DNA from: a bacterium
Lineage (GTDB): Bacteria; Bacillota_I; Bacilli_A; RF39; UBA660
Assembly: GCA_014846175.1 (NCBI GenBank)
Contig: RKAV01000062.1
Coordinates: 1-57,779 of the forward strand
Length of the DNA: 57,779 bases
Direction of reading: 5' to 3'
In this document: positions 40,036 to 57,779 of the stretch, in pieces
Numbering within the stretch: the first letter of the stretch is position 1
How the letters are laid out: every line of letters begins with the position of its first letter
Program-made: the position numbers and the translations under genes
Notes under the pieces: model-generated
What the model saw: only the letters and a program-made list of their open reading frames with translations
What the model was told of the DNA's origin: nothing
Database searches by the model: none

Positions 40036-40122
40036 ATTTCATTCCTCCTTTTTTGTTGGGATTTATAAATATACCAGTTCGTAACGATTATATTTTATCA
40101 TACAAACTACGAATATTTATAA

Positions 40123-41502: not shown

Positions 41503-41543
41503 TTATTTTGACCTCCTTTCAATGATTGTTTTAAAATAATACT

Positions 41544-41598: not shown

Positions 41599-41756
41599 AA
41601 TCCTTTATGCTTGTAATAGCTAGAACCAATACCTAATAAATAGGTAAAGGCATTCGCTATCACAAGATTAATTAAACGATATACTATATCATTTAATTAA
41701 TGGATAATGAATTCACTATCGCCACTTCCAACCTTACAGGTTAGAACGTGCCTCGT

Positions 41757-42707: not shown

Positions 42708-42722
42708 TTTGTATCTCCTTTC

Positions 42723-42974: not shown

Positions 42975-42992
42975 ATTTTTATCTCCTTTCCT

Positions 42993-43247
42993 TTAATCTT
43001 TTTGTGGTGATACATAAATGTAATAAGTATCATCAAGTGAATTATAGATAATATATTTTTTCTTTCTTAATTCTCTAAATGCCAGTGCAACATCTTTTCT
43101 ACTATCATTACTAAGAGAGTAGAGGTCAGTATTTTCAAGTTCTTCATTAGTTCTAACTAATAGAGAATTAAGCATACTAGTTGTTCCGATAGATAAATCT
43201 TTAGGAATAATAAATTCTTCAATATTATCTTTCTTAAATAATCTCAT
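42993..43247 (-). CDS. hypothetical small protein (IME-1 only)
   Basis: ORF with SD AGGAGA. No counterpart in IME-2. Confidence 0.4.
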   Translation of the reverse strand: MRLFKKDNIEEFIIPKDLSIGTTSMLNSLLVRTNEELENTDLYSLSNDSRKDVALAFRELRKKKYIIYNSLDDTYYIYVSPQKD

Positions 43248-43271
43248 ATTCACATTCTCCTTTCTTATCAG

Positions 43272-43371
43272 TGTCCGACATTAAGGACAATTCAAATATA
43301 ACATTGTCCGAGAATACTGTCAATACAATTTGGCCGAAAAACTAGACATTTAAACAAAAATGTGGTAAAAT
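43272..43371. promoter_or_regulatory. divergent switch region of IME-1: operator-like TGKCCGA repeats and XRE promoter
   Basis: TGTCCGA at 43272 and 43305, TGGCCGA at 43331. Promoter is TAGACA-17 nt-TAAAAT with TG extension (43343-43371). Confidence 0.45.
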
Positions 43372-43411
43372 CAAATTATTGAGAGAAAAAAGGGGAGAAA
43401 GAAGTGTTATT

Positions 43412-43942
43412 ATGAACTCAGAAGAACTTAAAAATTTAATTGAATCAGCAAGAGAGGTTAAAGGTATTTCACAAAGAGAACTAGCTAAATTAACAGGTAT
43501 TAGTAGAAGTACTTTAAATGATTTAATTAATGGAAAAATAAAAAAAGTAGATATTGATGATCTACGTAAAATTGCAGAAACTTTAGATATGTCATTACAA
43601 AAGCTATTAAAAGCTTCTGGTTATGATGAAATGTCTTTATATTTTCATGCTCATAAAAATAAGGATAAATATGCTGATAAGTCTAGTAAAGATTTAAAAG
43701 AATTAATTGAACAATATAAAGAATCAGAAACGGATTTATTACAATTTGATTTTACTAAAAGAGAAAATGCTAGAAAAGCATCATTTATAATTTTTGAAGT
43801 AGCAGAACACTTGACTTTACTTAAAGATGGTAAAAGTAAATACACTTTAGAACAAGCAATAGAAGAATTAAATAAAGCACAAGAATTACTTAATCCAATT
43901 ATGGATAAGTATGATTATAAAAAATTACCAAAGAAAGATTAG
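43412..43942 (+). CDS. XRE-family regulator with about 110-aa C-terminal extension (IME-1)
   Basis: ISQRELAKLTGISRSTLNDLINGK HTH. Start chosen by alignment with the IME-2 paralogue. Conserved C-terminal end DKYDYKKLP. Confidence 0.75.
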   Translation: MNSEELKNLIESAREVKGISQRELAKLTGISRSTLNDLINGKIKKVDIDDLRKIAETLDMSLQKLLKASGYDEMSLYFHAHKNKDKYADKSSKDLKELIEQYKESETDLLQFDFTKRENARKASFIIFEVAEHLTLLKDGKSKYTLEQAIEELNKAQELLNPIMDKYDYKKLPKKD

Positions 43943-43957
43943 TTAAGAGGTGTTGCA

Positions 43958-45373
43958 ATGCGAATAGGAATAGATATAGATAATGTTCTATCTAATTTTA
44001 ATGATGTATTATTAAACGAATATAAGAAACATGATAATGCAATAAATGGCAAAGGTATAGTTCATCAAGATTTATATATTAGAAATATGTTTAATTGGGA
44101 TAAAGAATATGAAAAAAATTTTTACAAAGAAAATATTGAGTATTTTGCAAGCCTATTTGAACCGATTGAAGAATGTTCTAAATATGTAAAATTATTAAAA
44201 GAAGAAGGAAATACAATTTATATCATTAGTGGTCGAGATAATGGTGAATATTCTAACCCATATAAAATGACCATTGATTGGTTAAAAAAATATGATATTG
44301 TTTATGATAAATTATTTTTGGTAGATGCTTATAATAGTCATTCAAAAACAGAAATATGTATAGAATACAATATTGATGTAATGATAGATGATTCTAAAAG
44401 AATGTGTAAGGACATAAAGGATAATGGTATTAGAGCATTACTTATGGATACACCATATAATAGAGATACAAATGAATTTGAAAGAGTTAATTCATGGAAA
44501 GAAATTTATAACAAATTATCTAATAAAAAAATTAATGTGATACTTGATACAGATACTTATAATGAATGTGATGACCAATTTGCATTAGCCTATTTAATTA
44601 AGTCACAAGATATGTTTAATATTGAGGCAATTACAGTAGCACCATATTCTCATACAAAAAGAGATGTAAAAGTAATAGATGGACAAGAGTTGAGTTATAA
44701 TGAAATTTTAAAAATATGTAATTGGTTAAATTTTGATACCATTGATAAAGTATTTAAAGGATCAATGGACTATATTCAAAATGGATATGATGAAAATAAT
44801 GATGCAGTAAATAAAATAATTGAAGTGGCGCTTAAAAACGATAAAACCTATATATTAGGAATTGGAGCTATAACTAATATTGCTTTAGCTATAAAAAAAG
44901 AACCTAAGATAATTGATAGAATAGAAATCATTTGGTTAGGTGGAAATGAAATAGAATATAAAGATAATTTAGAATATAATTTCAAACAAGATATAGAGGC
45001 TGTAAAAATAGTGTTTGATTCTACAGTGAAAATGACTATACTACCTTGCAAAAATGTAGTATCAGATTTAAGAATAGATATAGCTGAATTAAAAAGTAAA
45101 TTAGATAATAGGAAAGAATTAAATAAATATTTAATTGAGAGATTTTATAATGATGGATATCATGGAATACAAGAAACAAGAGTAATATGGGATATATCAG
45201 TAATAGCATATATGATAAATAAAAATTGGTTTGAAACAGAAAAAATTAGTTGTCCCAATATCAAGGAAGATAGTTCTTATGAATTAACTGATAATAGACA
45301 TAGTATAACTTTTGTAACTAAATTAGATAGAGATAGAATATATGAAGATTTATTTAGAAAGTTAGGAGTATGA
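43958..45373 (+). CDS. fusion protein: NT5C-type 5'(3')-deoxyribonucleotidase (HAD) N-terminal domain plus inosine-uridine-type nucleoside hydrolase-like C-terminal domain
   Basis: N-terminus MRIGIDIDNVLSN (HAD motif I DxDxV), IISGR, MIDD. From aa ~192, NVILDTDTYNECDDQFALAYL resembles the IUNH DxDxxxDD Ca-binding motif with two extra residues. Later GIGAITNIALA. Confidence 0.65.
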   Translation: MRIGIDIDNVLSNFNDVLLNEYKKHDNAINGKGIVHQDLYIRNMFNWDKEYEKNFYKENIEYFASLFEPIEECSKYVKLLKEEGNTIYIISGRDNGEYSNPYKMTIDWLKKYDIVYDKLFLVDAYNSHSKTEICIEYNIDVMIDDSKRMCKDIKDNGIRALLMDTPYNRDTNEFERVNSWKEIYNKLSNKKINVILDTDTYNECDDQFALAYLIKSQDMFNIEAITVAPYSHTKRDVKVIDGQELSYNEILKICNWLNFDTIDKVFKGSMDYIQNGYDENNDAVNKIIEVALKNDKTYILGIGAITNIALAIKKEPKIIDRIEIIWLGGNEIEYKDNLEYNFKQDIEAVKIVFDSTVKMTILPCKNVVSDLRIDIAELKSKLDNRKELNKYLIERFYNDGYHGIQETRVIWDISVIAYMINKNWFETEKISCPNIKEDSSYELTDNRHSITFVTKLDRDRIYEDLFRKLGV

Positions 45374-45376
45374 ATT

Positions 45377-45985
45377 ATGAAATTAACAAGCGATGAAGCA
45401 TTAAAACTAATTGAAAAAGAAAGAAATGAAACATCAAATGAACGATGGATAAATCATTCTATTTGTGTTGGTAATGCTGCAGGTAAAATAGCAGAAGCAT
45501 TAAATTTGAATATAGATTATGCAAAAACCTTAGGATATATTCATGATATTGGCAAAAAATTTAAGTATGATGAAAAAGGTGTATTTCCACATGCAATGAA
45601 TGGATATAAATATATTAAATCATTAGGATATGACGAGGATTATGCAGGAATTTGTATTAAACATTCATTTTTAAATAATGATATAGATTGTATTTCAAAC
45701 GATCGTGATGAAACAGATAAAAGTAATGAAAATTATGATTTTGTAAAACAGTATATAAGTAAAGAATATTCCATATATGAAAAAATTATAAATCTTTGCG
45801 ATTTAATGTGTACTACAAAAGTTTTAACAGTGGATAAAAGAATGATAGATTTGTTATATAGACATGGTGTCTATGCTAAAACACATTATCATATAGAAGA
45901 AACTATTAAATTGAAGGAATATTTTGATAATTTATTAGGATACAATTTATATGATTTGTTTTCTGAGATAAAAGAAAATTTGTAG
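45377..45985 (+). CDS. HD-domain phosphohydrolase (202 aa)
   Basis: INHSICVGNAAGKIAE...LGYIHDIGK carries the H...HD metal-binding signature. Similar in size to the YfbR-type 5'-deoxynucleotidases. Confidence 0.6.
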   Translation: MKLTSDEALKLIEKERNETSNERWINHSICVGNAAGKIAEALNLNIDYAKTLGYIHDIGKKFKYDEKGVFPHAMNGYKYIKSLGYDEDYAGICIKHSFLNNDIDCISNDRDETDKSNENYDFVKQYISKEYSIYEKIINLCDLMCTTKVLTVDKRMIDLLYRHGVYAKTHYHIEETIKLKEYFDNLLGYNLYDLFSEIKENL

Positions 45986-45993
45986 GTGATGTT

Positions 45994-46593
45994 ATGCGAA
46001 TAGGAATAGATATAGATGGCGTATTAACCGACATAGAACAATGGCAGTTAGATTATGGAAGTAAGTTTTATTTTGAAAAATATAATAAACAAATATTAGA
46101 TAATGAAGGCTATGAAACAACTGATATATTTAAAGTTGATAGTAAATTAGATGATGAGTTTTGGACTGAATATTTCAAAGATTATTCGATAAATGTTGAT
46201 GTTAGAAAATTGGCTAGCGAGGTAATTAAAAAACTAAAACAGGATGATAATGAAATTTATATTATTACCGCAAGAGGTAGTTTTTTATCACATTCTGCAA
46301 ATGTAATGCTTTTTGAAGAAAATAAAAATATTGTTTTAGAGTGGCTTAGAAAAAATGAAATTGAGTATGACAAAATAATATTTAGTCCAGAAGATAAACT
46401 TAGTATATGTATAGAAAATAATATTGATGTAATGATAGAAGATAAAGTTGATAACATAAATAAAATATCATCTAGAATTCCAGTTATATGTTTTCATGCA
46501 GGATATAACAAAAATTGTATTGGTGATAATATTATTAGATGTTATAGTTGGTATGACATATATAGTAAAATAAATAAAATGGTTCAAAAATGA
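45994..46593 (+). CDS. NT5C-type 5'(3')-deoxyribonucleotidase-like HAD protein
   Basis: MRIGIDIDGVLTD (DxDxV), IITAR, MIEDK. Paralogous to the N-terminal domain of the 471-aa protein. Confidence 0.6.
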   Translation: MRIGIDIDGVLTDIEQWQLDYGSKFYFEKYNKQILDNEGYETTDIFKVDSKLDDEFWTEYFKDYSINVDVRKLASEVIKKLKQDDNEIYIITARGSFLSHSANVMLFEENKNIVLEWLRKNEIEYDKIIFSPEDKLSICIENNIDVMIEDKVDNINKISSRIPVICFHAGYNKNCIGDNIIRCYSWYDIYSKINKMVQK

Positions 46594-47807
46594 AAAGATT
46601 ACTAAGAATTAGTTTTGATTTATCATTATTATCATTTATACCAATAATATCTTGGTTTTTACTTGGAATAATAGTTGATAAGAATTTAATTAATATATTT
46701 ACACTAACTTATCCGTTACAATTTATATATTATATAATTAAATCTATATTTTCTACTGGAGCTAATATAAGTAAAGAAAAAGATAAAAACGAAAATGCAG
46801 TAATGTCAGGTTTAGTATTAGGAACAATTGTTTCTATAATTATTTTTACTATAATTCTATTAAATGTGGATAATTATATTAGTTTTATGAATATGGATAT
46901 AAGTACATATAAAAACTTTACTATATATTCAATATTACAACTATTCATTTGTTTAGAATTTGCGATGATGCAAGATAAACTATATTATGAAGAAAAAAAT
47001 AAATTAGCAAATAAGTATTCTTTAGTATTTAATTTGTTAAATTTTATATTATTGATTGGAACATCTTTAATAACAAAAAATCAAATTATTATAATTGCAA
47101 CAACATTGATTCCATTAGCGATATATACTTTGTATATTTATATTAAAAATAGTAATAATTTTAAATTTAATATTAATGTATTAAAATGTATAAAATACGA
47201 TTCAGTTGAATTGTTCAATAATATTGCATTCTTTTTAATATTCTTGTTTGGATTATCTAATGCCTTAGAATATGGAGAAATGTATGCAACTGCTTTAACT
47301 TTTATAGCATTAATAACAGATACACAGTGGGATACTTTTGTTGCTATAAAAGAGGCAGCAACAATAGATATTAGTAAAAGAAAATTTAATTATATAGAAC
47401 ATAGAAATAATGCTTACAAATTATTAGGAATATTATTTGGGACAAGCTTAATTATGTTTGTATTATTATATGGATTTTATGATTTAGATTTTAAAATTAC
47501 AATGCTATATTTTTCATTTGAAATAGTTAATTTTTTAATTTATCCAATATATAGAATTAAAACTTGTTATTTACAATTGGAATATTCAGCTTTTAAAATT
47601 ACATCAAATAAGATAATAGCATCAATACTTAGAATGTTTATTTCGTTATTAAAAACACCATTTTGTACAGGAATAGGACAAGTGTGTTCATCAGTTTATC
47701 AATTTATAACAGTTAGTATAATGTTTGGTCATAATTTTAAAATTGATAAAACAGGTTGTGTTGTTAAAAAGAAATCAATATTGAATAATGACACTATGAC
47801 ATTATAA
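46590..47807 (+). CDS. polytopic membrane protein (about 12 TM, MOP/MATE-flippase-like topology; function unknown)
   Basis: ATGA start-stop overlap with the preceding gene. I count about twelve hydrophobic segments in the translation. Confidence 0.5.
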   Translation: MKRLLRISFDLSLLSFIPIISWFLLGIIVDKNLINIFTLTYPLQFIYYIIKSIFSTGANISKEKDKNENAVMSGLVLGTIVSIIIFTIILLNVDNYISFMNMDISTYKNFTIYSILQLFICLEFAMMQDKLYYEEKNKLANKYSLVFNLLNFILLIGTSLITKNQIIIIATTLIPLAIYTLYIYIKNSNNFKFNINVLKCIKYDSVELFNNIAFFLIFLFGLSNALEYGEMYATALTFIALITDTQWDTFVAIKEAATIDISKRKFNYIEHRNNAYKLLGILFGTSLIMFVLLYGFYDLDFKITMLYFSFEIVNFLIYPIYRIKTCYLQLEYSAFKITSNKIIASILRMFISLLKTPFCTGIGQVCSSVYQFITVSIMFGHNFKIDKTGCVVKKKSILNNDTMTL

Positions 47808-47966
47808 ATGTGAGTAGGATACTAACAAACAATGTGTCATGTATCATTTAATAATAAAAATAATGAAATATGTGATATAATAGTATATATAAAAAGAAGC
47901 GCTAGTACAGGCTTATGATTATAAGTTTTTGTATTGGCGTTTTTTTCGTAGTAAGGAAGTGATAAA

Positions 47967-50024
47967 ATGAATTTAAATTTAGAAAATGGATATACTGTTA
48001 CTTTACCTTCAAAAGGAAAGCATAATATATATTATGGACCAAATAAAATAGGTAAAACTCAGATATCTCGTTCGATGAAAAAATATTATGAAGAAATAAG
48101 TGAAAAAGTTCTTTTGTTTAATGAAAATATTTTAAGTGATATGATTATTCAAAGTAGTGAAGATATTAATTCTTTTGAAGTAATGCCTATGGCACAAGAG
48201 TATAATAAATACTATAATAATATGCAAAAAAGTAAAGAAAAATTATCAATGAAAAATAGTTTAAAGGATTTATGCTTAGTTAATACAAAAAAGGCATTTC
48301 AAGGGTTTGAAAAAATAAGTGAGTATATTAATGATGATAATACTTATTCTTATAATGGTGATGCTTTATCACCAGTTTATAGTCAAGATGATATCAAGGA
48401 TATGTATAAGCCAAAAAAGGTAAATATGAATATTTTTGAAATAATTGATAATCTGAAAAAGGATAATATCAAAATAATACCAGATAATGTTAAGAAAATT
48501 GTTGAGTATGATATATATAACATTCAATTGAAAATAAATCAAGACCCAGATAAATACAAGAATTGTCCTGTTTGTTTTTCACCTATTTGTCAAGAGAATT
48601 TAGATAATATAAGGGAAAGCATTGAAAATGGTTCAATCGAAAAAGAATTGCAATTATCAATATTATTCTATTTAGATAATAAAAGTGATATTTTAAGAAA
48701 TAAAATGTCTGAGATATTATTATGTGAATCATATGAATCCTTTGAAAAAGATTTTAAGTTAGATGTTGAAAAATCTATTATTTCTTATTTAAGTAATCAG
48801 TATGATAAAAAGGATGTTATAAATTATAAAGAAAATAAAACAAAAGTTGAAGAAATATTAAATAAAACAAAGGATTTTAAAATAAATGAAAATGTTGAAT
48901 TAAGTAATTATATAAAAAATAAATTAAAGAATCATACGGTTTATAAAAATACAGATATAGAAATAAAAATTAGTGATGGAAAGTTAAAAGTTTTAAATAG
49001 TCAAGTTGAATATGATAAAATGTCTAAATCGGAACAAAATTATTTCAAATTTCTTTATTTTGATATTTTAGTTCATCAAAAGATTTTAGAAGGGAATTTG
49101 CATATAATTATTGATGATCCATTTGATAGTTATGATGATATTTATGTCCAAGATTCAATAGCAATAATAACAAAATTAATAAATGAACATATTGAAGATA
49201 TTGATACAATTGATATTTTTTCTCACAGTATGTATATTCTTGATTTATATGATTCATTGAAAAAAATATATAATAAATTTAATATTTACTGGATGGATCA
49301 AATTGGTTTAACAAAAGAAATAAATATATTTGAAGATGGCTATCTTTTGTTTGAAAAAATAGATATAAATCCTTACGATTATGGAATTATATTGAAGATT
49401 AGCGATAAAATGGTTGATAAATATTCATTGATTGTATTTGCTGCACTTTTAAGAAATGAAATAAATGTAGAGCGTTTGTTATTTAAAAATAATAGCAATG
49501 GTGAACTTTCTGATGTGAAAAATAAAGTAGAAGAACTATATAATAAAATATCAGAATCAATCGATCATGTGAGGGAGGAAATATCAATAATTGAATTAAA
49601 TAACATTATTAATGAAATATTTTATTTTGGCTTAAACGATAACGAAATACAGAATGTGTCATCTTTATTTGATGATATTTCAAAAGATTATGTTGATATA
49701 GATATAAAAGCAAAAACTGGTTCTGGAAATGTTGTATCGGTTCCTAAAAATGATATTTGTTATATATTAATTTATAAAATATTATTTGGTTTGAAAATTA
49801 GAAGATTATTAGAAAAGAAGGTTTATGATATTGTACAAGAAGACTACACTGAAGTGTGGGATTTAATTGAAAAAATACCAAATACTCCATTGTATGATTA
49901 TTATAATTTATATAAATACATAATTAATTCGTTTAATCATTCTTCATCAAGAGTTGTTCCACCAATTTTTGTGTATAGTTTCAAATCATTACGAGAAATG
50001 TATGAAGAATTACAAGCATTGTAG
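47967..50024 (+). CDS. AAA_13 / PrrC-RloC-like ABC-type ATPase with unknown C-terminal domain (685 aa)
   Basis: Walker A-like YYGPNKIGKTQ, central coiled region with CPVCFSPIC, signature-like MSKSEQNYF, Walker B IIIDDPFDSYDD (compare the DDPxSSLD of this family). About 270 aa of C-terminal sequence carries no motif I recognise. Confidence 0.55.
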   Translation: MNLNLENGYTVTLPSKGKHNIYYGPNKIGKTQISRSMKKYYEEISEKVLLFNENILSDMIIQSSEDINSFEVMPMAQEYNKYYNNMQKSKEKLSMKNSLKDLCLVNTKKAFQGFEKISEYINDDNTYSYNGDALSPVYSQDDIKDMYKPKKVNMNIFEIIDNLKKDNIKIIPDNVKKIVEYDIYNIQLKINQDPDKYKNCPVCFSPICQENLDNIRESIENGSIEKELQLSILFYLDNKSDILRNKMSEILLCESYESFEKDFKLDVEKSIISYLSNQYDKKDVINYKENKTKVEEILNKTKDFKINENVELSNYIKNKLKNHTVYKNTDIEIKISDGKLKVLNSQVEYDKMSKSEQNYFKFLYFDILVHQKILEGNLHIIIDDPFDSYDDIYVQDSIAIITKLINEHIEDIDTIDIFSHSMYILDLYDSLKKIYNKFNIYWMDQIGLTKEINIFEDGYLLFEKIDINPYDYGIILKISDKMVDKYSLIVFAALLRNEINVERLLFKNNSNGELSDVKNKVEELYNKISESIDHVREEISIIELNNIINEIFYFGLNDNEIQNVSSLFDDISKDYVDIDIKAKTGSGNVVSVPKNDICYILIYKILFGLKIRRLLEKKVYDIVQEDYTEVWDLIEKIPNTPLYDYYNLYKYIINSFNHSSSRVVPPIFVYSFKSLREMYEELQAL

Positions 50025-50030
50025 AATTCT

Positions 50031-50051
50031 AGATACCAAAACTAGATACTA
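50031..50051 (+). repeat. AGATACCA / AGATACTA repeats at the right arm of IME-1
   Basis: TTCTAGATACCAA (50027-50039) is identical to 38848-38860. A second CTAGATACTA follows. Confidence 0.5.
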
Positions 50052-50166: not shown

Positions 50167-50176
50167 CCCCCTGAAG
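50167..50176 (+). repeat. putative att core copy 2 (CCCCCTGAAG)
   Basis: Identical to 38780-38789. Confidence 0.55.
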
Positions 50177-50208
50177 AGGAATCGAAAGATTCCTCATTTT
50201 TGTTTTTT
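50177..50208 (+). terminator. GAAA-loop terminator hairpin following core copy 2
   Basis: AGGAATC-GAAA-GATTCCT then CATTTTTGTTTTTT. Same architecture as 38790-38820 but a different stem sequence. Confidence 0.6.
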
Positions 50209-50260
50209 GCTTGAAATTACAAGGGTTTGTTAATTTTAAATTTTATAAATTAATGCTTTC

Positions 50261-50289
50261 AACTACCAATTAACTACCAAAATCTACCA
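50261..50289 (+). repeat. three direct AACTACCA/ATCTACCA repeats (putative Int-2 arm-type sites)
   Basis: AACTACCA at 50261 and 50272, ATCTACCA at 50282. They overlap the 3' end of int-2. Confidence 0.45.
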
Positions 50290-51415
50290 TTGTAGCATCA
50301 GTACAAGTTAGTTTATTTATGGTATTTACAGCATCATAAAGTTTATCTTTGAACATATGAGTATAAGTATCTAAAGTTTCTTCGATTGAAGCATGACCTA
50401 AGAAATCAGATACAACTGCTATATTAGTATTATTATTAATTAATAGTGATGCACAACTATGCCTAAAGTCGTGTAATCTTATTCTTTTAATATTAGCTTT
50501 TTTAGCAATTTCAATATTCTTATGCCTCATTTGATAGAATGTTATAGGAAGATAATTTCCAAATATAAACCATTCATCGTTAAATTCAGCAAATTGCTTT
50601 TGCTCATCATATAGCTTTTTTAAATCATTAAATAATACATTAGCAATAGGTAATATCCTATTACTTTTTTTAGTTTTTGGCTGTGTTAATTCATAATTTG
50701 TACAAGTTTCAGATCCATGTGTAACAGCTTGTTTTGTAATAGATACTGATTTATTATTCCAATTAATATCTTTCCATTGTAAGCCTCTAGCTTTACCTCT
50801 ACGAAGTCCTAGATAATATAAAGTTTCATACATACATTTAATTTGTAAGTTAGGGGATTCTGATATAAATTGATTAAATTCTTCTAAAGTATAGAAATCC
50901 ATTTCTTTCTTTAAATCAGATGCTGTAGTAAAACTTTCCATTCTGCTATAAAATTTACTCATATTGAAACCATAAGTCTTAGTTGCCCAATTAATTACAA
51001 TCTTTAAGAATTTTTGAATTTCATTTTTATAACTATTTGAACAATCTACTTTCATCATTTCAGCTCTCCATCTTTGATAATGAGTAGCATCCATATCTTT
51101 TAATTTAACTTTATCAAACATTCCAATATATTTAATTCTATCTCGATAAGTCTTTAAAGTTGACCATCTTACTATATTTTTTTGAACTTCGTAATATTTT
51201 GTGTACAAATCTTTGAAGGTCATATTCATATCTCCTTCAAATACTTCAGCCATTTTTAAATATTCTTTTTCAGCACGTTTTGCTTCTGCCTCAGTTTTAT
51301 ATGCTTTGGAAAACTTTTTGTGTTTTTTACCATCTAAACCTGTTTCCCAAATATACCATATATATTTACGACCATCTTTAGTCCATTTGCTTTCTTCTAA
51401 TAGTCTAACTGCCAT
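50270..51415 (-). CDS. int: tyrosine site-specific integrase (IME-2)
   Basis: GLRRGKARGL...HDFRHSCASLLI...GHASIEETLDTYTHMF. Paralogous to int-1. SD AGGAGG lies 7 nt before the ATG at 51415. Confidence 0.9.
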   Translation of the reverse strand: MAVRLLEESKWTKDGRKYIWYIWETGLDGKKHKKFSKAYKTEAEAKRAEKEYLKMAEVFEGDMNMTFKDLYTKYYEVQKNIVRWSTLKTYRDRIKYIGMFDKVKLKDMDATHYQRWRAEMMKVDCSNSYKNEIQKFLKIVINWATKTYGFNMSKFYSRMESFTTASDLKKEMDFYTLEEFNQFISESPNLQIKCMYETLYYLGLRRGKARGLQWKDINWNNKSVSITKQAVTHGSETCTNYELTQPKTKKSNRILPIANVLFNDLKKLYDEQKQFAEFNDEWFIFGNYLPITFYQMRHKNIEIAKKANIKRIRLHDFRHSCASLLINNNTNIAVVSDFLGHASIEETLDTYTHMFKDKLYDAVNTINKLTCTDATMVDFGS

Positions 51416-51509
51416 TTTCATTCCTCCTTTGCTTAGATTAGACTATTCACGCACTTCAGTTGGTAGTTTACCATATTTAATTATTTTTTCCAACTGAAGT
51501 GCGATAGTT

Positions 51510-52922
51510 TTATCTTTCTATTTCAAAATCATCTTTATTTTTATGGTTTTTACTATAATAACCATAATTAATAGCATCAGCTATATTTTCATATTCTTCT
51601 AATTTATCTTTAGGTTTATCTCTACCTAAAACTTTATCTAGTGCTTTACATATCTTTTTAAGTAGAAATTTCCATTTATCAACTTCAGTTTCTAATTTAG
51701 TTTTTAAACTCTCGATATTATTACTTAGTATATTAACTAAATCATTTAATCTACCAATTTCTTGTTTTTGTTCCTTAATTATTTTATTTTTCTTTAATAA
51801 TTCATTGTTATTTTTAAAAGTTTTGTTTTCTTCAGTAAGTTTAGCAATTTCCATATCTTTATTAGCGTTATCAGTACTTAAGATGATTATTTTGTGTTGT
51901 AATCCTTTTGTGTATTTAATTATCTTAAAAACATCATCTTCTTTATAACCACCAAGTTTTCTTTTAGTAGGATTTAATACATTACTATAATCACTATTAT
52001 ATTCGAGATTTTTAAGTCCATTTTTAGAGTTTTCAATAATCTTTAAGGTATTCTCCTTTTCTTTATTTAATTCTTCTAATTCGACTTTTTTCTCGGCAAT
52101 ATCATAATCTAGTTTTGATTGATTTTCTTTATTAGAACCAACATCTCCACGATAGAGATTAAATCCTTTTTCAGTAATAAACTTATTAAAGTCATTTTGC
52201 ATTTGATGAAAAGATAATTTACCACCTTTATCTTTCCAAAATTGATCACAGTTTAAAAATTTACCATTTACTTCTTCATAAACAATTTTACCTTTATCAT
52301 CACGAAGTAATTTAGGTACAATAGAGGTAGTTCTATCTTTCTTTTTTATTTCTTCTTTAACAACATTACCATTTTCATCTTTTACAAAACATTTTCTTTT
52401 AACTTTAGTAACTACGGGAACAAAATAAGCTTGTAGGTGAGGAGTATCTTCATCATAGTGAATTTGTGATAATAAGATATTTTCTTCACCAACATATTCT
52501 TTTAAAAACTCCATACAAGAGTCAAAAAAGTAACTTACAGCTTTTGTTATATCTCCTTTAGCTTTAATATCAGGAATCATTACTGCTTGTCCTTTTTTAT
52601 CTCCTGTATGATAAGTTCTACCACTATCTTTAAATTTCATTCCAAGTGATTGAAAGAATTCAGGACCACTTGTGAATGTTACACCATTTAAAAGGTTAGT
52701 GTTAGGTCTATTTTGATATTCAATATTTCTTACTTTTAAATTATTCTTAACTTCTTGATATAAATTATTTTGAGTAAGAGATACATATTCAACATTAAAT
52801 ATAGTTCTATCTTTATCATAATTACCTGTACCTTTTCTATCAGTCATTTCTACACCAATATTATAAAGGTCATCTTTTTTACATTGAGTTTCAACTCGTA
52901 CTACTTGTTTTCCATCATACAA
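51510..52922 (-). CDS. mob: MobV-family relaxase (IME-2)
   Basis: HYDEDTPHLQAYFVPVV and collinear similarity to the IME-1 relaxase. TTG start with SD AAGGAG. Confidence 0.8.
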   Translation of the reverse strand: MYDGKQVVRVETQCKKDDLYNIGVEMTDRKGTGNYDKDRTIFNVEYVSLTQNNLYQEVKNNLKVRNIEYQNRPNTNLLNGVTFTSGPEFFQSLGMKFKDSGRTYHTGDKKGQAVMIPDIKAKGDITKAVSYFFDSCMEFLKEYVGEENILLSQIHYDEDTPHLQAYFVPVVTKVKRKCFVKDENGNVVKEEIKKKDRTTSIVPKLLRDDKGKIVYEEVNGKFLNCDQFWKDKGGKLSFHQMQNDFNKFITEKGFNLYRGDVGSNKENQSKLDYDIAEKKVELEELNKEKENTLKIIENSKNGLKNLEYNSDYSNVLNPTKRKLGGYKEDDVFKIIKYTKGLQHKIIILSTDNANKDMEIAKLTEENKTFKNNNELLKKNKIIKEQKQEIGRLNDLVNILSNNIESLKTKLETEVDKWKFLLKKICKALDKVLGRDKPKDKLEEYENIADAINYGYYSKNHKNKDDFEIER

Positions 52923-52970
52923 TATTTAATTCTCCTTTCTTTGTTTTTAGTATTAGAGGCCATTTATGAC

Positions 52971-53046
52971 CTATCTCACTAGGGCATAGCCCAATCGTGA
53001 GTTTAAGGATTTCACCCTTAAAAATCCCAAATAATCACTATCGCCA
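52971..53046. other. candidate oriT region of IME-2
   Basis: CTATCTCACTAGGGCATA (52971-52988), CCCAATCGTGAG and CACTATCGCCA (53036-53046) are shared with the IME-1 mob-upstream region. Confidence 0.4.
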
Positions 53047-53119
53047 AGTTCTTATTTATAGAAGATGATTATTCATCATCTTCAAGTATAGGTTCTTAAT
53101 ATACACAATGATATTTTCT

Positions 53120-54027
53120 TTAATTACTAGTTCTAGACTTTGTTATATGAAGGCCTTCTTTTTCTAATAAATCAATATTTAAATTTAATGATCTTCCAAA
53201 ACGTAGAGCAGTTGTTTTTAACTTAGCATCATGAATAATACTTGTAGAAGTAAATTCAAAATCTTTTTTATATGATGCATACTTAATAAAAAGAATTAAG
53301 TTTTCATCAATTTCATCATCTTCAATTGAATTACTTATTTTAAAAGTTTGATTTTTATTTCTTTTTAAATCTATATCAAAACCTTCAAAATCTCTATTAA
53401 TTACTTTCATAGTTAAATGATTATGGTCATTTCTATTCTCAAACAAAGTAATTTTACCATCTATACAAGCATCAAAAGCTGTACTACCTAATGTTTCATT
53501 CCTTTTATTTAAGTGATGAGTAAATAGAATAGTGATATTGTATTTCTCGCATAATTCTCTTAACTTAGGCATTAACTTTTGAGCTACATCTTGAAAATCA
53601 TTAATATCATAAGAGATACCTAAATCCATATCTTTAAGCATATCTATTATTACAAATTTATTAGTAGTTTTATCACCAGCAAAATCAGCAATTTCATATT
53701 CATGGTCAAATATACTTATAGTAGATTTTCCATCTCTCTATCCATGATAAATAATGAGCTTTCCTTTGGAGTTAATTGTAATGTTTTGTATCTGTCTTGT
53801 AATTGACCAAAATCAGACTCTGTGCTAATATATAATACAGGTGAAAGAGTTACTTTGTGTCCTAGAAATGGTAATCCATTTGTAAGGCAGTAGGAAAGTT
53901 GCAGTGCCAACATAGACTTTCCTACTTTAGGTTTTGATACAAGTAAATATACACCTTTAGACCTCATTAGTCCTTCGACAATGATGTCTTTTTTTTCACT
54001 TGTATCTATCTCTTCAATTAGTTTCAT
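53120..54027 (-). pseudogene. RecA-like AAA ATPase of IME-2, split by a frameshift
   Basis: ORF 53716..54027 carries the Walker A (SKPKVGKS). ORF 53120..53641 carries FTHHLNK and the C-terminus. The C-terminal frame stays open upstream to about 53745 (GKSTISIFDHEYEIADF...KFVIIDMLKDM), so a single frame change near 53745-53760 explains the split. Confidence 0.7.
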
Positions 54028-54030
54028 ATT

Positions 54031-54267
54031 TTACGCTCCTTTCTTTACTCGAGATTCTAAATAACCTATATTAATATCTAAATAATCTACTACTTCTTTC
54101 ATAGGTACTACATGCTTTGGAACCATATAACCTTGTTTAGTAAGTTTATCTTTAATAGTTCGTTTAATTTTAAGAGCAGAATTTCTACCAACTTGGCTAA
54201 TTTTCATTAAATCTTCTAAATTGCACCATTGTTTTGATACGATTTCTAAAGTTTCCTCAGCAGTCAT
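54031..54267 (-). CDS. small HTH protein, excisionase / DUF3173-like (IME-2)
   Basis: Paralogue of 42723..42974. Confidence 0.5.
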   Translation of the reverse strand: MTAEETLEIVSKQWCNLEDLMKISQVGRNSALKIKRTIKDKLTKQGYMVPKHVVPMKEVVDYLDINIGYLESRVKKGA

Positions 54268-54285
54268 TTTCTCCCTCCTTTCTAC

Positions 54286-54386
54286 ATTGTAAGGTTATCC
54301 TTACAATTATATTATCTAACAAATAAATTTTATTGTCAAGAAAAACTGACAAAATGTTGTGAAAAACTTACAAAGTATGATATAAT
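54286..54386. promoter_or_regulatory. divergent switch region of IME-2: inverted-repeat operators and XRE promoter
   Basis: ATTGTAAGGTTATCCTTACAAT (54286-54307), TTGTCAAGAAAAACTGACAA (54333-54352), TTGTGAAAAACTTACAA (54357-54373). Promoter is TTGTGA-17 nt-TATAAT with TG extension. Confidence 0.5.
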
Positions 54387-54431
54387 GAATTTGGGATTAA
54401 TTTATATCCTAATAAATGAAGGAGTATTTAT

Positions 54432-54956
54432 ATGGATAAAGAGATTACTTTAAAAACTTTAATTGAAGGTGGAAGAGATATAAAGAATTTTTCTCAAAGA
54501 GAACTTGCCAGAAGAATAGGATTAAGTAATACATCATTAAATGATCTTGAAAATGGAAAAGTTCAAAAACCTGATATAGAAGTATTAAGAAAAATTGCTG
54601 AAGAACTCGATTTGTCTTTAGAACAATTATTAAAAGCAGCAGGATATAATGCCATAACAACAATGCTAACTAGTGATGAGTTTCAAAATAAATCAACTAG
54701 AGATTTAAAAAATATTATTAAAGAGTGCAGAAACTTTAAGTATGACATTTTAGATTGGGATAGTAATAAACGAAATATAACAAGAAATGTAATGGCTGAT
54801 TTAGAAAGAATTACACATAAATTAGAGCTTATAAGAGATAATCGAGGAATAAACTACACATTAGATAATGCGATAGAAGATATTAATAAATCTTTAGAAG
54901 AGTTAAAAGATGTAGTTAAGAAATATGATTATAGTAAATTACCTAATGACTTATAG
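54432..54956 (+). CDS. XRE-family regulator with C-terminal extension (IME-2)
   Basis: FSQRELARRIGLSNTSLNDLENGK HTH. C-terminal KKYDYSKLP as in IME-1. Confidence 0.75.
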   Translation: MDKEITLKTLIEGGRDIKNFSQRELARRIGLSNTSLNDLENGKVQKPDIEVLRKIAEELDLSLEQLLKAAGYNAITTMLTSDEFQNKSTRDLKNIIKECRNFKYDILDWDSNKRNITRNVMADLERITHKLELIRDNRGINYTLDNAIEDINKSLEELKDVVKKYDYSKLPNDL

Positions 54957-54974
54957 AAAGAGAGATGATTAATA

Positions 54975-55772
54975 ATGATTTTAGTGAATAATGAAAAGTT
55001 AAATAATTTAAACTCTATTTCTGTAAATGATTTATATATTTTGACTGATTTTGATGGAACAATTACTAAGGATAATAGTGATAGTTCTTGGGCAAGTATT
55101 TTTAAAAATCCTAAAGTTACAAAAGAATTTATTGATGAATGTATAAGAATATTTAGTCATTATCATAAATTTGAAATTGATGAGTCATTATCAATTGAAG
55201 AAAAAATGCCAATCATGAGTGAATGGTATAGAAAAAATATAGAAACATTAATTAATTTTGGTATTACAGAAGAAATTATAAACTATGCTGCTAATAACGA
55301 AAGTATTATGGCTTTTCGAGATGGAGCAATTGATTTTTTAAAGACAATGTATGAAAAAAATATTCCTATTATAGTAATATCAGCAGGTGTTGGTAATATT
55401 ATTGAACAATTTTTAATTAGAAATAATTGCAATTATTCAAATATTTATATTTGTTCTAATTTCTTGGAATATGAAAAAGGCATAGTTAAAGGAGTTAGAG
55501 ATAATAATTTAACTCATCCATTAAATAAAAATGAAGTATTTTTACCATCAAATATTAAAAGTAAAATTATAGGCAGAAATAATATTTTACTTCTTGGCAA
55601 TAGTGTTTTAGATATAAATATGGCAGGTACTAATAGAAATGTTTATAAATTGGGTTTTTTAGATGAAAAAATAGAAGAAAGATTAGAATCTTTTAAAGAA
55701 AACTACGATATAGTTTGTACAGATAATACTTCTTATGATGAAATACGAAGTAAAATAAAAATTCTAAATTAG
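54975..55772 (+). CDS. HAD-superfamily nucleotidase, pyrimidine 5'-nucleotidase (UMPH-1)-like (tentative)
   Basis: LTDFDGTITKD (DxDxT motif I), cap-like insertion, VISAGVGN and GNSVLD motifs. Confidence 0.5.
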   Translation: MILVNNEKLNNLNSISVNDLYILTDFDGTITKDNSDSSWASIFKNPKVTKEFIDECIRIFSHYHKFEIDESLSIEEKMPIMSEWYRKNIETLINFGITEEIINYAANNESIMAFRDGAIDFLKTMYEKNIPIIVISAGVGNIIEQFLIRNNCNYSNIYICSNFLEYEKGIVKGVRDNNLTHPLNKNEVFLPSNIKSKIIGRNNILLLGNSVLDINMAGTNRNVYKLGFLDEKIEERLESFKENYDIVCTDNTSYDEIRSKIKILN

Positions 55773-55786
55773 GTCGTGGTGATATA

Positions 55787-56472
55787 ATGAAAAAAGAGTC
55801 CTTTGATAAATTATTAAAGATTATGTCTAAATGTGATAAATGCACTAATTTTAAGTGTAAAGAGAAGTCATTGATAAATATTTATAATGATTATAACTTT
55901 AGTTCAAATATACCATCTATATGGACTGATTGGTTTAATAGACTAGATTCCAAGATTATGATTATAGGTCAAGACTGGGGACCTTATAATGATATGAAAA
56001 AACTAAATAATTTGTTAAAAGAAGATAAAAGTAATTGGAATGAATTAATTGAGTCATAAAAAAGTAATACAAAAAAATATTAGAAAAATATATAAAAGAA
56101 TCTTCTAACAGTAGGTATTCGTTAAATGATATATTTATAACAAATGCAATAATGTGTGCAAGACAGGGAGATAATTATAGAGGAAATAATATTGATTTAA
56201 AAAAATCTACTCTAAAATGTAGTGATTTCTTATTAAAACAAATCGAGATAGTAAAGCCAAAAGTAATATTAACTTTAGGATATTATCCATTATTATCTTT
56301 ATCTAACTTATTAAATTTTGATATAGAAAGAACACTAAAGGAAACTATTAGAAAATATCCTGAAATAAATAAAGATGATTATGTTATTATTCCTTTATAT
56401 CACCCAGTAGCACAAATTAAAAAGGCTGAACAGTTAGTGCAATATAAAAAAATATGGAATTATATTGACTAA
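55787..56472 (+). pseudogene. uracil-DNA-glycosylase-superfamily gene, disrupted
   Basis: IMIIGQDWGP (motif A-like) lies in ORF 55787..56059. FITNAIMCAR and LYHPVA (motif B-like) lie in the second frame, which is open from 56068. A TAA at 56057 plus a frame change in or near the A7 run at 56071-56077 separate the halves. Confidence 0.55.
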
Positions 56473-56493
56473 AAATAAGGAGAACGTTATTAT

Positions 56494-56873
56494 ATGAAAG
56501 TATTAAGTTTAACTGAACCATACGCAACTTTAATTAAAAATGGTATTAAAACAATAGAAACTAGAAGTTGGAAAACTAATTATAGAGGTAAATTATACAT
56601 TCATGCAAGTTCAACAAAAATTCCAAAAGAATATAAAAATAGTAAAGAGTTGATATTAATTGTTTAAATTATGGAAACATAATTTGCTCTTGTGAATTAA
56701 TTGATTGTATTGAAATGACAGAAGAATTTTTAGAAAAAATGAAGAAAAATAAAAATGAATATATAACAGGTATTTATGCTGTTGGAAGATATGCATGGAT
56801 ATTAAAAGATATAAAAGTATTAGACAAACCTATTAAAGCCAAAGGATATTTAGGTATTTGGAATTTTGATTAA
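56494..56873 (+). pseudogene. ASCH-domain gene with a frameshift
   Basis: MKVLSLTEPYATLIKNGIKTIETRSWKTNYRGKLYIHAS... stops at 56665-56667. The rest (NYGNIICSCELIDCIEM...GRYAWILKDIKVLDKPIKAKGYLGIWNF) continues in another frame to the TAA at 56871-56873. Confidence 0.6.
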
Positions 56874-56935
56874 ATAATAATTACGGCTTGATGATAACCA
56901 TATACAATTGATTTTAAAAAGGAGATGTGAAATAA

Positions 56936-57244
56936 ATGAAGATAATAACAGTGTGTGGTAGTTTGAAATTTGTTAATGAAATGATGGAAATAACAGAAAA
57001 AATGGAACTAGAAGGTAATTGTATGTTAGTACCTATATATAATCCATCAAAAACTAGCAAAGATGACTTTACTGAAGAAGAAGCATTAATGCTTGATAAA
57101 ATGCATAAAGAAAGAATAAAACTATCTGATGCTATTTTAGTTGTAAATGTTAATGATTATATAGGTAGTAGCACTAAAAGTGAAATCGAGTTTGCTAAAT
57201 CATTAAATAAAGAAATAATGTATTATACTGATTTAATAAAATAA
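56936..57244 (+). CDS. small nucleoside 2-deoxyribosyltransferase-like protein (tentative)
   Basis: MKIITVCGSLKF...SDAILVVNVNDYIGSSTKSEIEFAKSLNKEI follows the pattern I associate with the Nuc_deoxyri_tr2-type family (ICGSxxF ... yiG.st..Ei.yA). SD AAGGAG. Confidence 0.4.
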   Translation: MKIITVCGSLKFVNEMMEITEKMELEGNCMLVPIYNPSKTSKDDFTEEEALMLDKMHKERIKLSDAILVVNVNDYIGSSTKSEIEFAKSLNKEIMYYTDLIK

Positions 57245-57271
57245 TTTTTAACAAATATACAAAGGTGAAGT

Positions 57272-57779
57272 ATGACTAATTTTTTAAAATGGTTAAGTAT
57301 TTTATCTACTCGAGAGTGGGCTACAATAATTTGGATTTTGATTTTATCAGTATATGTATTAATTAATAAGAAAACAAGATATTCTGCCCTAGACGTTATT
57401 AAAATATTATTTGGAAAGAATTTAATAAAAATATGGATAATAACTTCTTTATATGTGATTTTAATAACATTATTATTTTCTAAAACGTCAATATGGGATA
57501 ATTGTTACATAAAGGATATTATTATATGGTATATAACATCAGGAGTAATATTTTGTTTTAATGCAGCATCTAGGGAATCTGATGAACAATATATTTGGAA
57601 AGTATTAAAAGATAATTTAAAGTTTACAATTGTTATAGAGTTTTTTTATAGTACATTTACATTTAAACTTTGGGTTGAGTTACTAATTATTCCTATTATT
57701 ACATTCTTAGCAATGGTAGATCCTGTTGCTGAAAGAAAAGAAGAATACAAAATTGCACATAAGTTTATGCAATCAATAT
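57272..57779 (+). CDS. membrane protein, 3' end beyond the window
   Basis: My own translation from the ATG at 57272 (SD AAAGGTGA) is open to the window end: MTNFLKWLSILSTREWATIIWILILSVYVLINKK..., with several hydrophobic helices. Confidence 0.45.
   Translation, partial: MTNFLKWLSILSTREWATIIWILILSVYVLINKKTRYSALDVIKILFGKNLIKIWIITSLYVILITLLFSKTSIWDNCYIKDIIIWYITSGVIFCFNAASRESDEQYIWKVLKDNLKFTIVIEFFYSTFTFKLWVELLIIPIITFLAMVDPVAERKEEYKIAHKFMQSI

Follow-up and report, generated by a model that had tools for sequence, protein, structure and literature searches.

The stretch of DNA analysed here, hereafter the window, spans positions 1 to 57,779 of contig RKAV01000062.1 (assembly GCA_014846175.1), from a bacterium of the RF39 group of Bacilli. 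Its right end is occupied by IME-2, an integrative mobilizable element (IME) of about 8 kb, which resides in uncultured small-genome gut Bacilli at the 3' end of recG. IME-2 is preceded by a sister element, IME-1, and the two form a tandem array downstream of recG. The backbone order is common to both: genes encoding an integrase, a Mob_Pre relaxase, an AAA_25 ATPase and a xis-like protein are read leftward, a gene encoding an XRE-family repressor is read rightward, and cargo genes come next. The cargo of IME-2 had been described in a first-pass annotation, made from the letters alone, as a HAD nucleotidase gene followed by genes for a protein of the uracil-DNA glycosylase (UDG) type, an ASCH-domain protein, a small protein resembling nucleoside 2-deoxyribosyltransferases (NDT) and a membrane protein. 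Order and positions of these genes were both confirmed.

The XRE gene (54432-54956, + strand; Pfam HTH_3, E 4.7e-14) ends with a stop codon that marks the left edge of the cargo slot. All cargo genes are on the + strand. The first of them begins at the ATG at 54975, after a gap of 18 nt, as had been noted. It is intact (54975-55772) and encodes a pyrimidine 5'-nucleotidase of the UMPH-1/cN-III family (Pfam UMPH-1, E 1.9e-48, 165.6 bits against a cut-off of 23.7), in which the LTDFDGTIT string singled out earlier is part of HAD motif I (ILTDFDGTIT, with DFDGT at residues 25-29). The matches in the PDB are human and Drosophila cN-III and cN-IIIB (7zee, 7e-36; 2bdu, 4e-34). Similarity to these enzymes is full-length, at about 30% identity by eye, and includes HAD motif I; the IME-2 protein differs in being bacterial and borne by a mobile element. 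cN-IIIB removes m7GMP. The nucleotidase falls below the NCBIfam HAD-SF-IE cut-off (148 vs 257 bits), and its family is small in the protein collection searched (93 clusters).

The second gene (55787-56472) is a pseudogene in the window, split into the pieces 55787-56059 and 56152-56472, and the second piece matches Pfam UDG (E 5.3e-7). The intact allele, taken from the near-identical copy L001, is 228 amino acids (aa) long, and has been modelled with AlphaFold2 (pLDDT 81). The best Foldseek matches of the model are the family-4 UDGs 4zbx, 1ui0 and 1vk2, from S. tokodaii, T. thermophilus and T. maritima (E 1e-8 to 1e-6), and UdgX comes next; TM scores to 4zbx, 4zby, 1ui0 and 1vk2 are 0.58-0.73. 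The NCBIfam type-4 UDG model matches at 3.7e-10, under its cut-off. Four cysteines (C16, C19, C124 and C145), candidate ligands of an iron-sulfur (Fe-S) cluster of the 4Fe-4S type, do not vary among 40 relatives. Two of them, C124 and C145, have cysteine counterparts in 4zbx, and the N-terminal CxxC lies outside the alignment. Motif B reads YHPVAQ, aligned to YHPAAAL of 4zbx, and FITN is aligned to FITN. In the same 40 relatives the base-reading N120 is invariant and H206 nearly so. Motif A is an invariant GQDWGP rather than the GE(A/G)PG of family 4; it resembles the GQDPY motif of family-1 UDGs and makes the protein a family-4-like variant instead of a canonical family-4 member. The intact protein appears to have all the signs of an active glycosylase of the uracil type.

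The ASCH-domain gene (56494-56873) is likewise a pseudogene in the window. Its pieces are 56494-56667, which matches Pfam ASCH (1.7e-7, 32.3 bits against a cut-off of 21.2), and 56715-56873. The intact protein, also recovered from L001, is 130 aa long, carries the GxKxxExR octapeptide as GIKTIETR, and has the TRIP4 ASCH domain as closest PDB match (3e-8). The fourth gene (56936-57244) is intact and encodes a 102-aa protein of the NDT/DNPH1 fold, here called p102. Its Pfam match to Nuc_deoxyrib_tr is below threshold (E 0.013, 16.1 bits against a cut-off of 28.8). Single-sequence and profile searches of the PDB with p102 found nothing, and only the fold search was informative: with the AlphaFold2 model (pLDDT 81), Foldseek retrieved CtNDT (8e-5, TM 0.7), and then the CMP N-glycosidase BcmB, DNPH1 and YtoQ. 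E83, D54 and E59 are invariant and are candidate catalytic residues. The p102 family is large (7,043 clusters at 50% identity). Two relatives are fused to a NUDIX hydrolase, one in each order, which ties the family to nucleotide metabolism. Many relatives (among them P0336, P0337, P0345, P0414 and P0356) feature two or three copies of the p102 unit in tandem in one polypeptide. Profile searches place UMPH-1 and ASCH above their Pfam cut-offs and match the UDG gene to its family, in agreement with the first-pass annotation, and leave p102 with a sub-threshold match and a match of fold.

The last gene, of which the window includes the first 169 codons (57272-57779), encodes a polytopic membrane protein of 294 aa. 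The full gene (L001 10337-11221) specifies about five hydrophobic segments and a basic C-terminal tail, and has no match in Pfam, NCBIfam or PADLOC. The six rightward genes, XRE gene included, are separated by gaps of 14-62 nt, and no terminator-like site was found from the XRE gene to the end of the membrane gene. Ratios of nonsynonymous to synonymous substitution (dN/dS), calculated against relatives found in other contexts, are 0.07-0.21 for the five cargo genes and denote purifying selection; the value is 0.11 for the nucleotidase (against an 82%-identical relative), 0.07-0.2 for p102 and 0.21 for the membrane protein. None of the five has a meaningful match in PADLOC-DB 2.0.0, the only hit being a weak one of REase_II on the UDG N-terminal fragment (4.9e-4), and none received an equivalog assignment from NCBIfam.

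The left end of IME-2 is the 13-bp direct repeat TTTCAACTACCAA (50257-50269, + strand), the core of the attachment (att) site, which lies just outside the integrase stop codon. The element extends past the window end. In six copies (L001, L003, L004, L007, L010 and L021) the 13-mer is found at both ends of an intact element; the right copy is about 76 nt 3' of the membrane gene, and intact IME-2 is 7,983 bp long in L021. The five genes are therefore the entire cargo of IME-2. The tyrosine integrase gene (50270-51421, - strand; 383 aa) encodes a protein 50% identical to its IME-1 counterpart, and the same gene in L001, called as 381 aa, contains Phage_int_SAM_3 and Phage_integrase domains. The relaxase (51510-52922, -; 470 aa), of the MobV type, is 40% identical to that of IME-1, and the L001 protein of the same length matches PF01076 (Mob_Pre). 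The AAA_25 ATPase gene (53120-54027, -) is a pseudogene in the window, split into 53120-53641 and 53716-54027; the intact L001 protein has 318 aa and matches PF13481. The 78-aa product of the next open reading frame (ORF; 54031-54267, -) is 70% identical to the IME-1 counterpart and has no Pfam match; the position of the gene suggests a xis-like role. The spacer between this gene and the XRE gene contains a divergent control region (54286-54386), made of an inverted repeat with 9-bp arms (54286-54307) and two promoter-like sites facing away from each other. The leftward site, TTGACA-17-GATAAT, is at about 54311-54339, and the rightward one, an extended -10 site reading TTGTGA-18-TATAAT, at about 54357-54386. 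Both are consensus matches, the best two of the region, scored on the equivalent L001 stretch and moved to window coordinates by alignment; such sites are no commoner in the control region than in shuffled sequence.

Near-identical copies of IME-2 encode their own integrase and their own relaxase and no conjugation pore genes, as expected of an IME, and no large genes besides backbone and cargo are found in the 8-kb repeat-bounded element. IME-2 occurs at recG and dtd insertion sites in many samples, which indirectly fits mobility. A phage satellite or prophage remnant was considered and ruled out, because the backbone includes a Mob_Pre relaxase, capsid and packaging genes are missing, and UDG and UMPH-1 are almost devoid of phage homologues; p102 has a few, in jumbo phages and cyanophages.

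The window copy is in decay. The nucleotidase and p102 were looked up by exact sequence and are indexed in 332 and 576 collection blocks, respectively; the contigs read with either are human-gut metagenome assemblies, some longer than 1 Mb. An intact copy, represented by L001, is widespread in human-gut metagenomes and 99.3% identical to window 50167-57779 (7.6 kb). Compared with L001, the window has a 2-nt insertion in the AAA_25 gene (53733-53734). The UDG gene has acquired a nonsense codon by a G>T change (56057) and has lost 1 nt (56069), and the ASCH gene lacks 13 nt after 56647, so that all three are pseudogenes. Sequencing error as the cause of the split genes was ruled out by the nonsense substitution, the 13-nt deletion and the 2-nt insertion; only the UDG 1-nt deletion, directly before an A7 run, is adjacent to a homopolymer. 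Lesions of this type are atypical of read errors, and the 33 kb of housekeeping genes upstream consist of long intact ORFs, so the copy is genuinely decaying. Inactivation was surveyed in 23 cassette copies and ten further places. The ASCH gene is dead through two independent alleles, the UDG gene is dead in the window copy only, and a split UMPH-1 gene and a frameshifted membrane gene were each seen in one copy. In L012 and L015 the mobility genes are deleted and the cassette is kept.

The cargo site downstream of the repressor gene

IME-1 and IME-2 had been thought to be related elements carrying non-homologous, functionally parallel cargo at the same place. The relationship is clear from the identity of 40-70% that the two show in integrase, relaxase, AAA_25 ATPase, xis-like protein and XRE repressor. 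The cargo of IME-1 consists, in order, of a fusion of NT5C with IU_nuc_hydro (nucleoside hydrolase), an HD protein, a second NT5C, a membrane protein and a 685-aa protein, so that a nucleotidase opens this cargo too. BLASTP found no similarity between the two sets of cargo proteins; non-homology does not extend to the first genes at the level of fold, as both encode members of the HAD superfamily.

A degenerate search with three XRE relatives yielded 80 loci in species-representative genomes, almost all labelled as uncultured Bacilli, Tenericutes, Mollicutes or CAG bins. The slots of 78 species-level loci encode 397 proteins, which fall into 227 clusters, and the first gene alone belongs to 32 different clusters. 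The set was collected up to 10 kb past the XRE gene, and is partly beyond the element ends; claims on defence genes therefore rest on repeat-bounded elements. Boundaries based on repeats are good for about ten sister elements, and the spurious 11-12-mers found in the ABC-F group have been disregarded. Sister elements having the same att core match IME-2 DNA from attL to L001 8008-8019. As the XRE stop codon is at 8007, the left edge of similarity lies within about 10 nt of it. Similarity resumes at L001 11262-11423, the attR arm, about 40 nt past the last cargo gene, and between these edges sister elements share with IME-2 either nothing or single genes. L022 is the clearest case, its backbone being 96% identical to IME-2 and its cargo made of genes for a Zeta toxin, a 114-aa protein, ASCH, p102, a YhcG nuclease, a cupin and an AAA_21 ATPase. 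In L030, genes for NUDIX, NT5C and a serine hydrolase are found among others. The slot of L031 encodes a methyltransferase, YhcG, a member of the inositol-monophosphatase family and a dehydrogenase, and has the Gabija pair GajA and GajB at its end; that of L043 encodes HD_3, SDR, ASCH and a reverse transcriptase, and the cargo of L078 also ends in Gabija. These five are repeat-bounded elements of 10-14 kb, and a Fic toxin is also found in repeat-bounded sister cargo. C-terminal XRE remnants head cargo arrays in decayed copies (L001, L012 and L015), which identifies the XRE gene as the left recombination junction. The post-XRE slot is thus supported as a real and sharply bounded cargo site, swappable as had been proposed. 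Swapping is slow compared with the spread of IME-2, since in each of ten distinct contexts the cargo behind the identical XRE allele consists of the five IME-2 genes. The next unit past attR differs among these contexts, and the recG 3' end is hence also an accretion site.

Remnants of this kind are seen just past the right end of IME-2 in L001, where a 99-aa ORF (11603-11902) corresponds to the C-terminal half of an IME-1-type XRE protein, and also in L006, L013, L130 and L133-135. The cargo-like arrays which follow contain Lactamase_B, GNAT, beta-lactamase fold and Q_salvage genes, and at other loci His_Phos_1 with NT5C or PHP; they look like decayed elements that kept only the cargo. Gabija-like pairs (AAA_15 plus OLD-type TOPRIM, then a UvrD helicase) are found as distal cargo in L031 (14799-18099) and L078 (15731-19739). 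A similar pair is located just beyond IME-2 in L004 (11757-14958), a contig with an intact cassette.

Slot contents were classified by individual and pooled Pfam scans. Conflict genes include Gabija, OLD-type ATPases, AbiEii, ToxN, Zeta, Fic, restriction-modification, reverse transcriptase, YhcG and YobI ATPase. Cluster representatives are matched by PADLOC models for Gabija, AbiE, HerA, DRT, Septu and PARIS. Resistance-like enzymes are an ABC-F ATPase with an AAA_33 kinase (10 loci), APH, GNAT, SDR and serine hydrolases. Enzymes acting on nucleotides or bases are NT5C, UMPH-1, HD, HD_3, NUDIX, MazG, dCMP deaminase, two types of UDG, methyladenine glycosylase, ASCH and p102. Unknowns form a fourth group. 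Nucleotide-related families account for at least 47 of 362 genes in the first eight slot positions, and for the first gene in 11 of 65 loci; this is probably several times their share in a genome. The nucleotide and base theme recurs, and is real; it is neither exclusive nor uniform. Sel1, Fic, GNAT, APH, SDR and serine hydrolases are common too, and the commonest first cargo is ABC-F followed by the AAA_33 kinase. This pair, found in 10 species-level loci (L055, L060-L062, L064-L066, L071, L073 and L077), consists of a 500-aa ABC-F-type double ATPase and a 162-aa AAA_33/Zeta-like kinase, and possibly provides antibiotic resistance of the ribosome-protection type. A second recurrent cassette (L054, L056, L088 and L025) encodes a MazG-type pyrophosphohydrolase (115 aa), a UDG-superfamily protein (228 aa), a P-loop protein (153 aa) and a Peptidase_S51 (182 aa). 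This second UDG type features the motifs GASPARRG and EHPR, and is always preceded by MazG. A hydrolase and a UDG are therefore paired in two unrelated ways, as UMPH-1 plus UDG and as MazG plus UDG.

Relatives of the IME-2 cargo genes are found in other settings. Chromosomal UDG copies are about 72-77% identical to the IME-2 protein and have the same catalytic and Fe-S residues. One of these genes overlaps the beginning of the gene for the GTPase YlqF, with rnhB and topA farther downstream, and another lies between ruvB-queH and cmk. An 85%-identical UDG is located in an IME-1-type element behind genes for dCMP deaminase, SDR and the 114-aa protein, and is followed by a p102 homologue, YobI ATPase and YhcG. 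One UMPH-1 relative, 82% identical, adjoins a Q_salvage gene (L115-L118), and another, 56% identical, adjoins a Nuc_deoxyri_tr2 gene, with ASCH nearby, in variable islets between rplS and ylqF where NUDIX, HAD, Metallophos and recombinase genes reside as well. An hhalign comparison of p102 with this Nuc_deoxyri_tr2 protein was negative. The cargo array of a serine-recombinase element, which occupies several insertion sites, closes with a p102 homologue. The five genes thus belong to a clade-wide pool that moves among chromosomal islets and at least two families of elements. Within L001 itself, a p102 paralogue (15069-15396, an 89-aa ORF with 88% nucleotide identity to window 56918-57247) lies directly after a gene of the queuosine salvage family Q_salvage.

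Possible functions of the five-gene cassette

The reading that we favour, tentatively, is that the cassette is a pyrimidine-hygiene operon co-transcribed with the repressor. The cargo would form one operon reading on from the XRE gene and, to judge from spacing and the absent terminator, would be expressed along with the repressor in the resident, quiescent element. Its four soluble products resemble characterised proteins that strip non-canonical pyrimidines from the nucleotide pool or from nucleic acid, and may act as a two-tier module. At the pool level, the cN-III-type 5'-nucleotidase would dephosphorylate pyrimidine or modified nucleoside monophosphates (NMPs), and p102, from its NDT/DNPH1 fold, would probably cleave the base from (d)NMPs. 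At the polymer level, the family-4-like Fe-S glycosylase would excise uracil-type bases from DNA, and the ASCH protein, of the 'GKER' type, would remove N4-acyl groups from cytidine. The membrane protein may export or import the released base or nucleoside. A scavenging, auxotrophic host salvaging foreign nucleic acid would be the likely beneficiary, and RF39 bacteria are described as auxotrophic and highly reduced (PMC6784871). Phages with uracil-type modified DNA would be harmed by this chemistry as well. The slot would be exchanged through recombination, with the conserved XRE end on one side and the attR arm on the other.

This reading is in keeping with sister cargo rich in housecleaning-type hydrolases (NUDIX, MazG, HD_3, NT5C and dCMP deaminase). 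The Lys and Glu of GxKxxExR are reported to be required to remove N4-acetyl from cytidine in tRNA (ac4C deacetylation), and ASCH amidohydrolases such as YqfB, TthASCH and TRIP4 ASCH share fold and Lys/Glu dyad with the IME-2 protein (10.64898/2026.02.27.708502). ASCH proteins elsewhere are also RNases or DNA glucosyl hydrolases, and the IME-2 protein is a candidate amidohydrolase. A precedent for joint action on pool and DNA is given by mammalian DNPH1, which removes 5hm-dUMP, and SMUG1, which excises the 5hmU that reaches DNA (PMC10603095). In both systems an NDT-fold protein, in IME-2 a putative N-glycosidase, is paired with a glycosylase of the UDG superfamily, and p102 shares with DNPH1 the fold and a CGS motif at the end of strand 1. 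In contrast, p102 has only 102 aa, lacks detectable sequence similarity to DNPH1 and, by comparison of motifs, does not conserve the Tyr of the catalytic triad. The pairing may be taken as support by analogy only. Several observations weigh against pyrimidine hygiene. The substrates are presumed from distant relatives at 17-35% identity; p102 is under the Pfam threshold and, in a comparison of motifs only, has Thr5 at the position of DNPH1 Tyr24. The five genes are not a fixed set: UMPH-1 plus UDG is found in IME-2 only, and ASCH, p102 and the membrane gene recombine independently, so that joint function is not demonstrated. Inactivated alleles of ASCH, UDG, UMPH-1 and the membrane gene show weak selection on at least some members. 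Sister elements hold true defence systems in the same slot, and housecleaning genes are not usually hypervariable cargo.

The main rival is an anti-phage system directed against phages with uracil or 5-substituted pyrimidines in their DNA, which we consider possible though rather unlikely. The nucleotidase and p102, as an N-glycosidase, would destroy the modified dNMPs from which the phage builds its DNA, that DNA would be left with abasic sites by the glycosylase, and the ASCH protein would unmask or read the modified base, as BapA does for Brig3. The slots of sister elements, in which Gabija, reverse transcriptase, AAA_21 ATPases, YhcG nuclease and toxins reside and cluster representatives are matched by PADLOC models, and the cargo being co-oriented with the repressor gene and reading on from it, both speak for this view. 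The layout is typical of defence genes in resident elements, such as lambda rexAB with cI. Glycosylases of the UDG fold with a defence role do exist. Brig1 excises alpha-glucosyl-5hmC and has Glu where repair UDGs have Asn (PMC11078745). Brig2 targets modified thymidines, and integron-encoded UDG-like candidates of the same study are at most 20% identical to Brig1 (10.1101/2025.10.29.685425). Brig3, which has weak homology to UDGs and an aromatic pocket, excises 5hmC and is encoded beside BapA, an ASCH-fold enzyme removing glucose from glucosyl-5hmC in DNA (10.64898/2026.02.25.707755). The order of the IME-2 genes, with UDG directly 5' of ASCH on horizontally moving DNA, mirrors the brig3-bapA operon, and the closest solved structure of Brig1 is the same S. 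tokodaii family-4 UDG that is nearest to the IME-2 protein. The failure of the five genes to match PADLOC counts against a defence role; it is weakened by the database dating from 2023, which would not include Brig proteins. The first-pass annotation had seen in the slot the pattern of defence hotspots, and Gabija and reverse transcriptase genes in repeat-bounded sisters agree with this; for the IME-2 genes themselves a defence reading is unproven. In particular, the UDG does not fit the description of a diverged defence glycosylase. Brig proteins are far from repair UDGs, whereas the IME-2 UDG is 72-77% identical to copies located in housekeeping operons, shows no active-site change with respect to them, and keeps the cysteines of the Fe-S type together with the Asn that reads uracil, a residue exchanged in Brig1. 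BapA has two barrels and more than 250 aa, and the IME-2 ASCH protein is a single domain of 130 aa. Dead alleles of UDG (window copy) and ASCH (two alleles) occur in nature, and a counter-defence footprint is lacking, as only one weak phage homologue of UDG was found. A bolder version has the intact operon as a new multi-layer anti-phage system, which excludes uracil-type hypermodified pyrimidines at the levels of precursors and of phage DNA, and p102 proteins as a new class of nucleotide N-glycosidases, recruited repeatedly beside YhcG nuclease, YobI ATPase and the membrane protein; this we deem improbable.

It is similarly unlikely that the genes have no joint function, and are independent cassettes drawn from chromosomal islets of the host clade, near-neutral or singly useful passengers whose nucleotide theme reflects abundance in the gene pool. 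ASCH, p102 and membrane genes do occur without UMPH-1 and UDG (L009), UDG and p102 without ASCH (L125), and p102 alone before YhcG (L024, L026 and L028) or last in the serine-recombinase element; the same families fill the rplS-ylqF islets, and pseudogenes are frequent. Yet purifying selection is strong on every one of the genes, all distinct contexts of this XRE allele have exactly the five-gene set, and the cassette is retained where mobility genes are deleted (L012 and L015). Also against this view, pairing of a nucleotide hydrolase with a UDG occurs in two unrelated versions, and UMPH-1 adjoins an NDT-family gene in an independent context. Detoxification of nucleoside or nucleobase analogues, that is microbial antimetabolites and drugs of the fluoropyrimidine type, is very unlikely. 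Monophosphates of such compounds would be dephosphorylated or deglycosylated, and bases incorporated into DNA excised. Analogue monophosphates are substrates of nucleotidases of the cN-III type and of enzymes of the DNPH1 type, the cargo most frequent in sister elements comprises ABC-F plus kinase, APH, GNAT, beta-lactamase-fold and SDR genes, and the membrane protein could be an exporter, but none of the five genes matches a resistance family, and the presence of ASCH would be left unexplained. Least probable of all, in our judgement, is that the genes serve the element itself, either by uracil repair in the single-stranded transfer intermediate or by degrading nucleotide immune signals of the recipient as a counter-defence. 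Family-4 UDGs act on single-stranded DNA, Pycsar signalling by pyrimidine cyclic nucleotides exists, and a Lactamase_B gene outside the element has a faint match to Anti-Pycsar Apyc1; against this, the cassette is kept in copies deprived of any mobility genes, and a 5'-nucleotidase does not open cyclic nucleotides. Pyrimidine hygiene and exclusion of phages share the same proposed chemistry and differ in the selecting force.

The tandem array at recG

The G+C content of the window is about 26%. ORFs in the first 38.6 kb are long and uninterrupted, and recG occupies 36639-38639. Fourteen tRNA genes were identified (34227-35114, 27196-27353, 13494-13566 and 24119-24206). Eleven form one cluster at 34.2-35.1 kb, which accounts for the G+C peak at 34-35 kb. 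IME-1 (38848-50039) is bounded by the 13-bp repeat TTCTAGATACCAA, found at 38848 and 50027. Its last cargo gene (47967-50024) encodes the 685-aa protein, which includes a P-loop-like GPNKIGKT near the N-terminus and a CPVC motif, and has no Pfam match above threshold and no match in PADLOC or the PDB. The gene sits at the distal position, where sister elements have Gabija or AAA_21 ATPases. At the left junction of IME-1 (38852-38893) three copies of AGATACCAA are found within 45 nt, and one copy is present at the right junction (50031-50039); these could be candidate arm-type binding sites of the integrase.

A terminator-like hairpin is located 3' of recG (38780-38815), where CCCCCTGAAG and GTTCCCTCGAAAGAGGGAAC are followed by a T-run. 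A look-alike hairpin, CCCCCTGAAGAGGAATCGAAAGATTCCTC plus a T-run, lies between IME-1 and IME-2 (50167-50200), and L004 and L007 have the motif once more behind IME-2. A copy of the target region seems to be brought in, or made anew, with each element, which would account for tandem stacking. The order of the elements is reversible, as IME-2 comes first and an IME-1-type element second in L138 (9072-10525), and in L005 the element is in the opposite orientation relative to recG. Tandem arrays have thus been assembled independently in different strains.

Known systems and significance

IME-2 is similar to IMEs of Firmicutes such as IMESag-rpsI and Tn4451, which combine an integrase with a MobV/Mob_Pre relaxase in 5-15 kb, lack mating-pore genes, are inserted at the 3' end of housekeeping genes between short repeats, accrete in tandem with related or decayed elements, and vary in size according to their cargo (PMC5704250). 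It differs in the host, an uncultured small-genome gut member of the Bacilli of the RF39 type, in the AAA_25/xis/XRE module, in cargo starting exactly at the repressor stop codon, and in the nature of the cargo. Conserved flanks, unrelated cargo and the presence of known defence systems, here Gabija and reverse transcriptase, are shared with defence and cargo hotspots such as those of pipolins (PMC11551731). In contrast to these, defence genes are a minority in the slot described here, which mixes housecleaning hydrolases, resistance-like enzymes and toxins. Other hotspots of the kind are those of P2 and P4 and hotspot 5 of the SXT integrative and conjugative element.

RF39-like Bacilli are common in human guts and have never been grown, and their mobile elements are almost undescribed. 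A family of 8-14-kb elements, in which the cargo slot has edges sharp to the base pair, makes turnover readable from metagenomes. The slot is a natural catalogue of genes that pay their way. Known defence systems and probable drug-resistance genes are among them, as are small enzymes that trim nucleotides, in apparently marked excess. If these enzymes are defensive, they would add a pool-level arm to immunity based on glycosylases. If they provide hygiene functions, scavenging auxotrophs would be exchanging genes for nucleotide sanitation by horizontal transfer. In both cases, the 102-aa NDT-fold family and the GQDWGP subfamily of Fe-S glycosylases, both uncharacterised, are cheap and well-defined targets for biochemistry.

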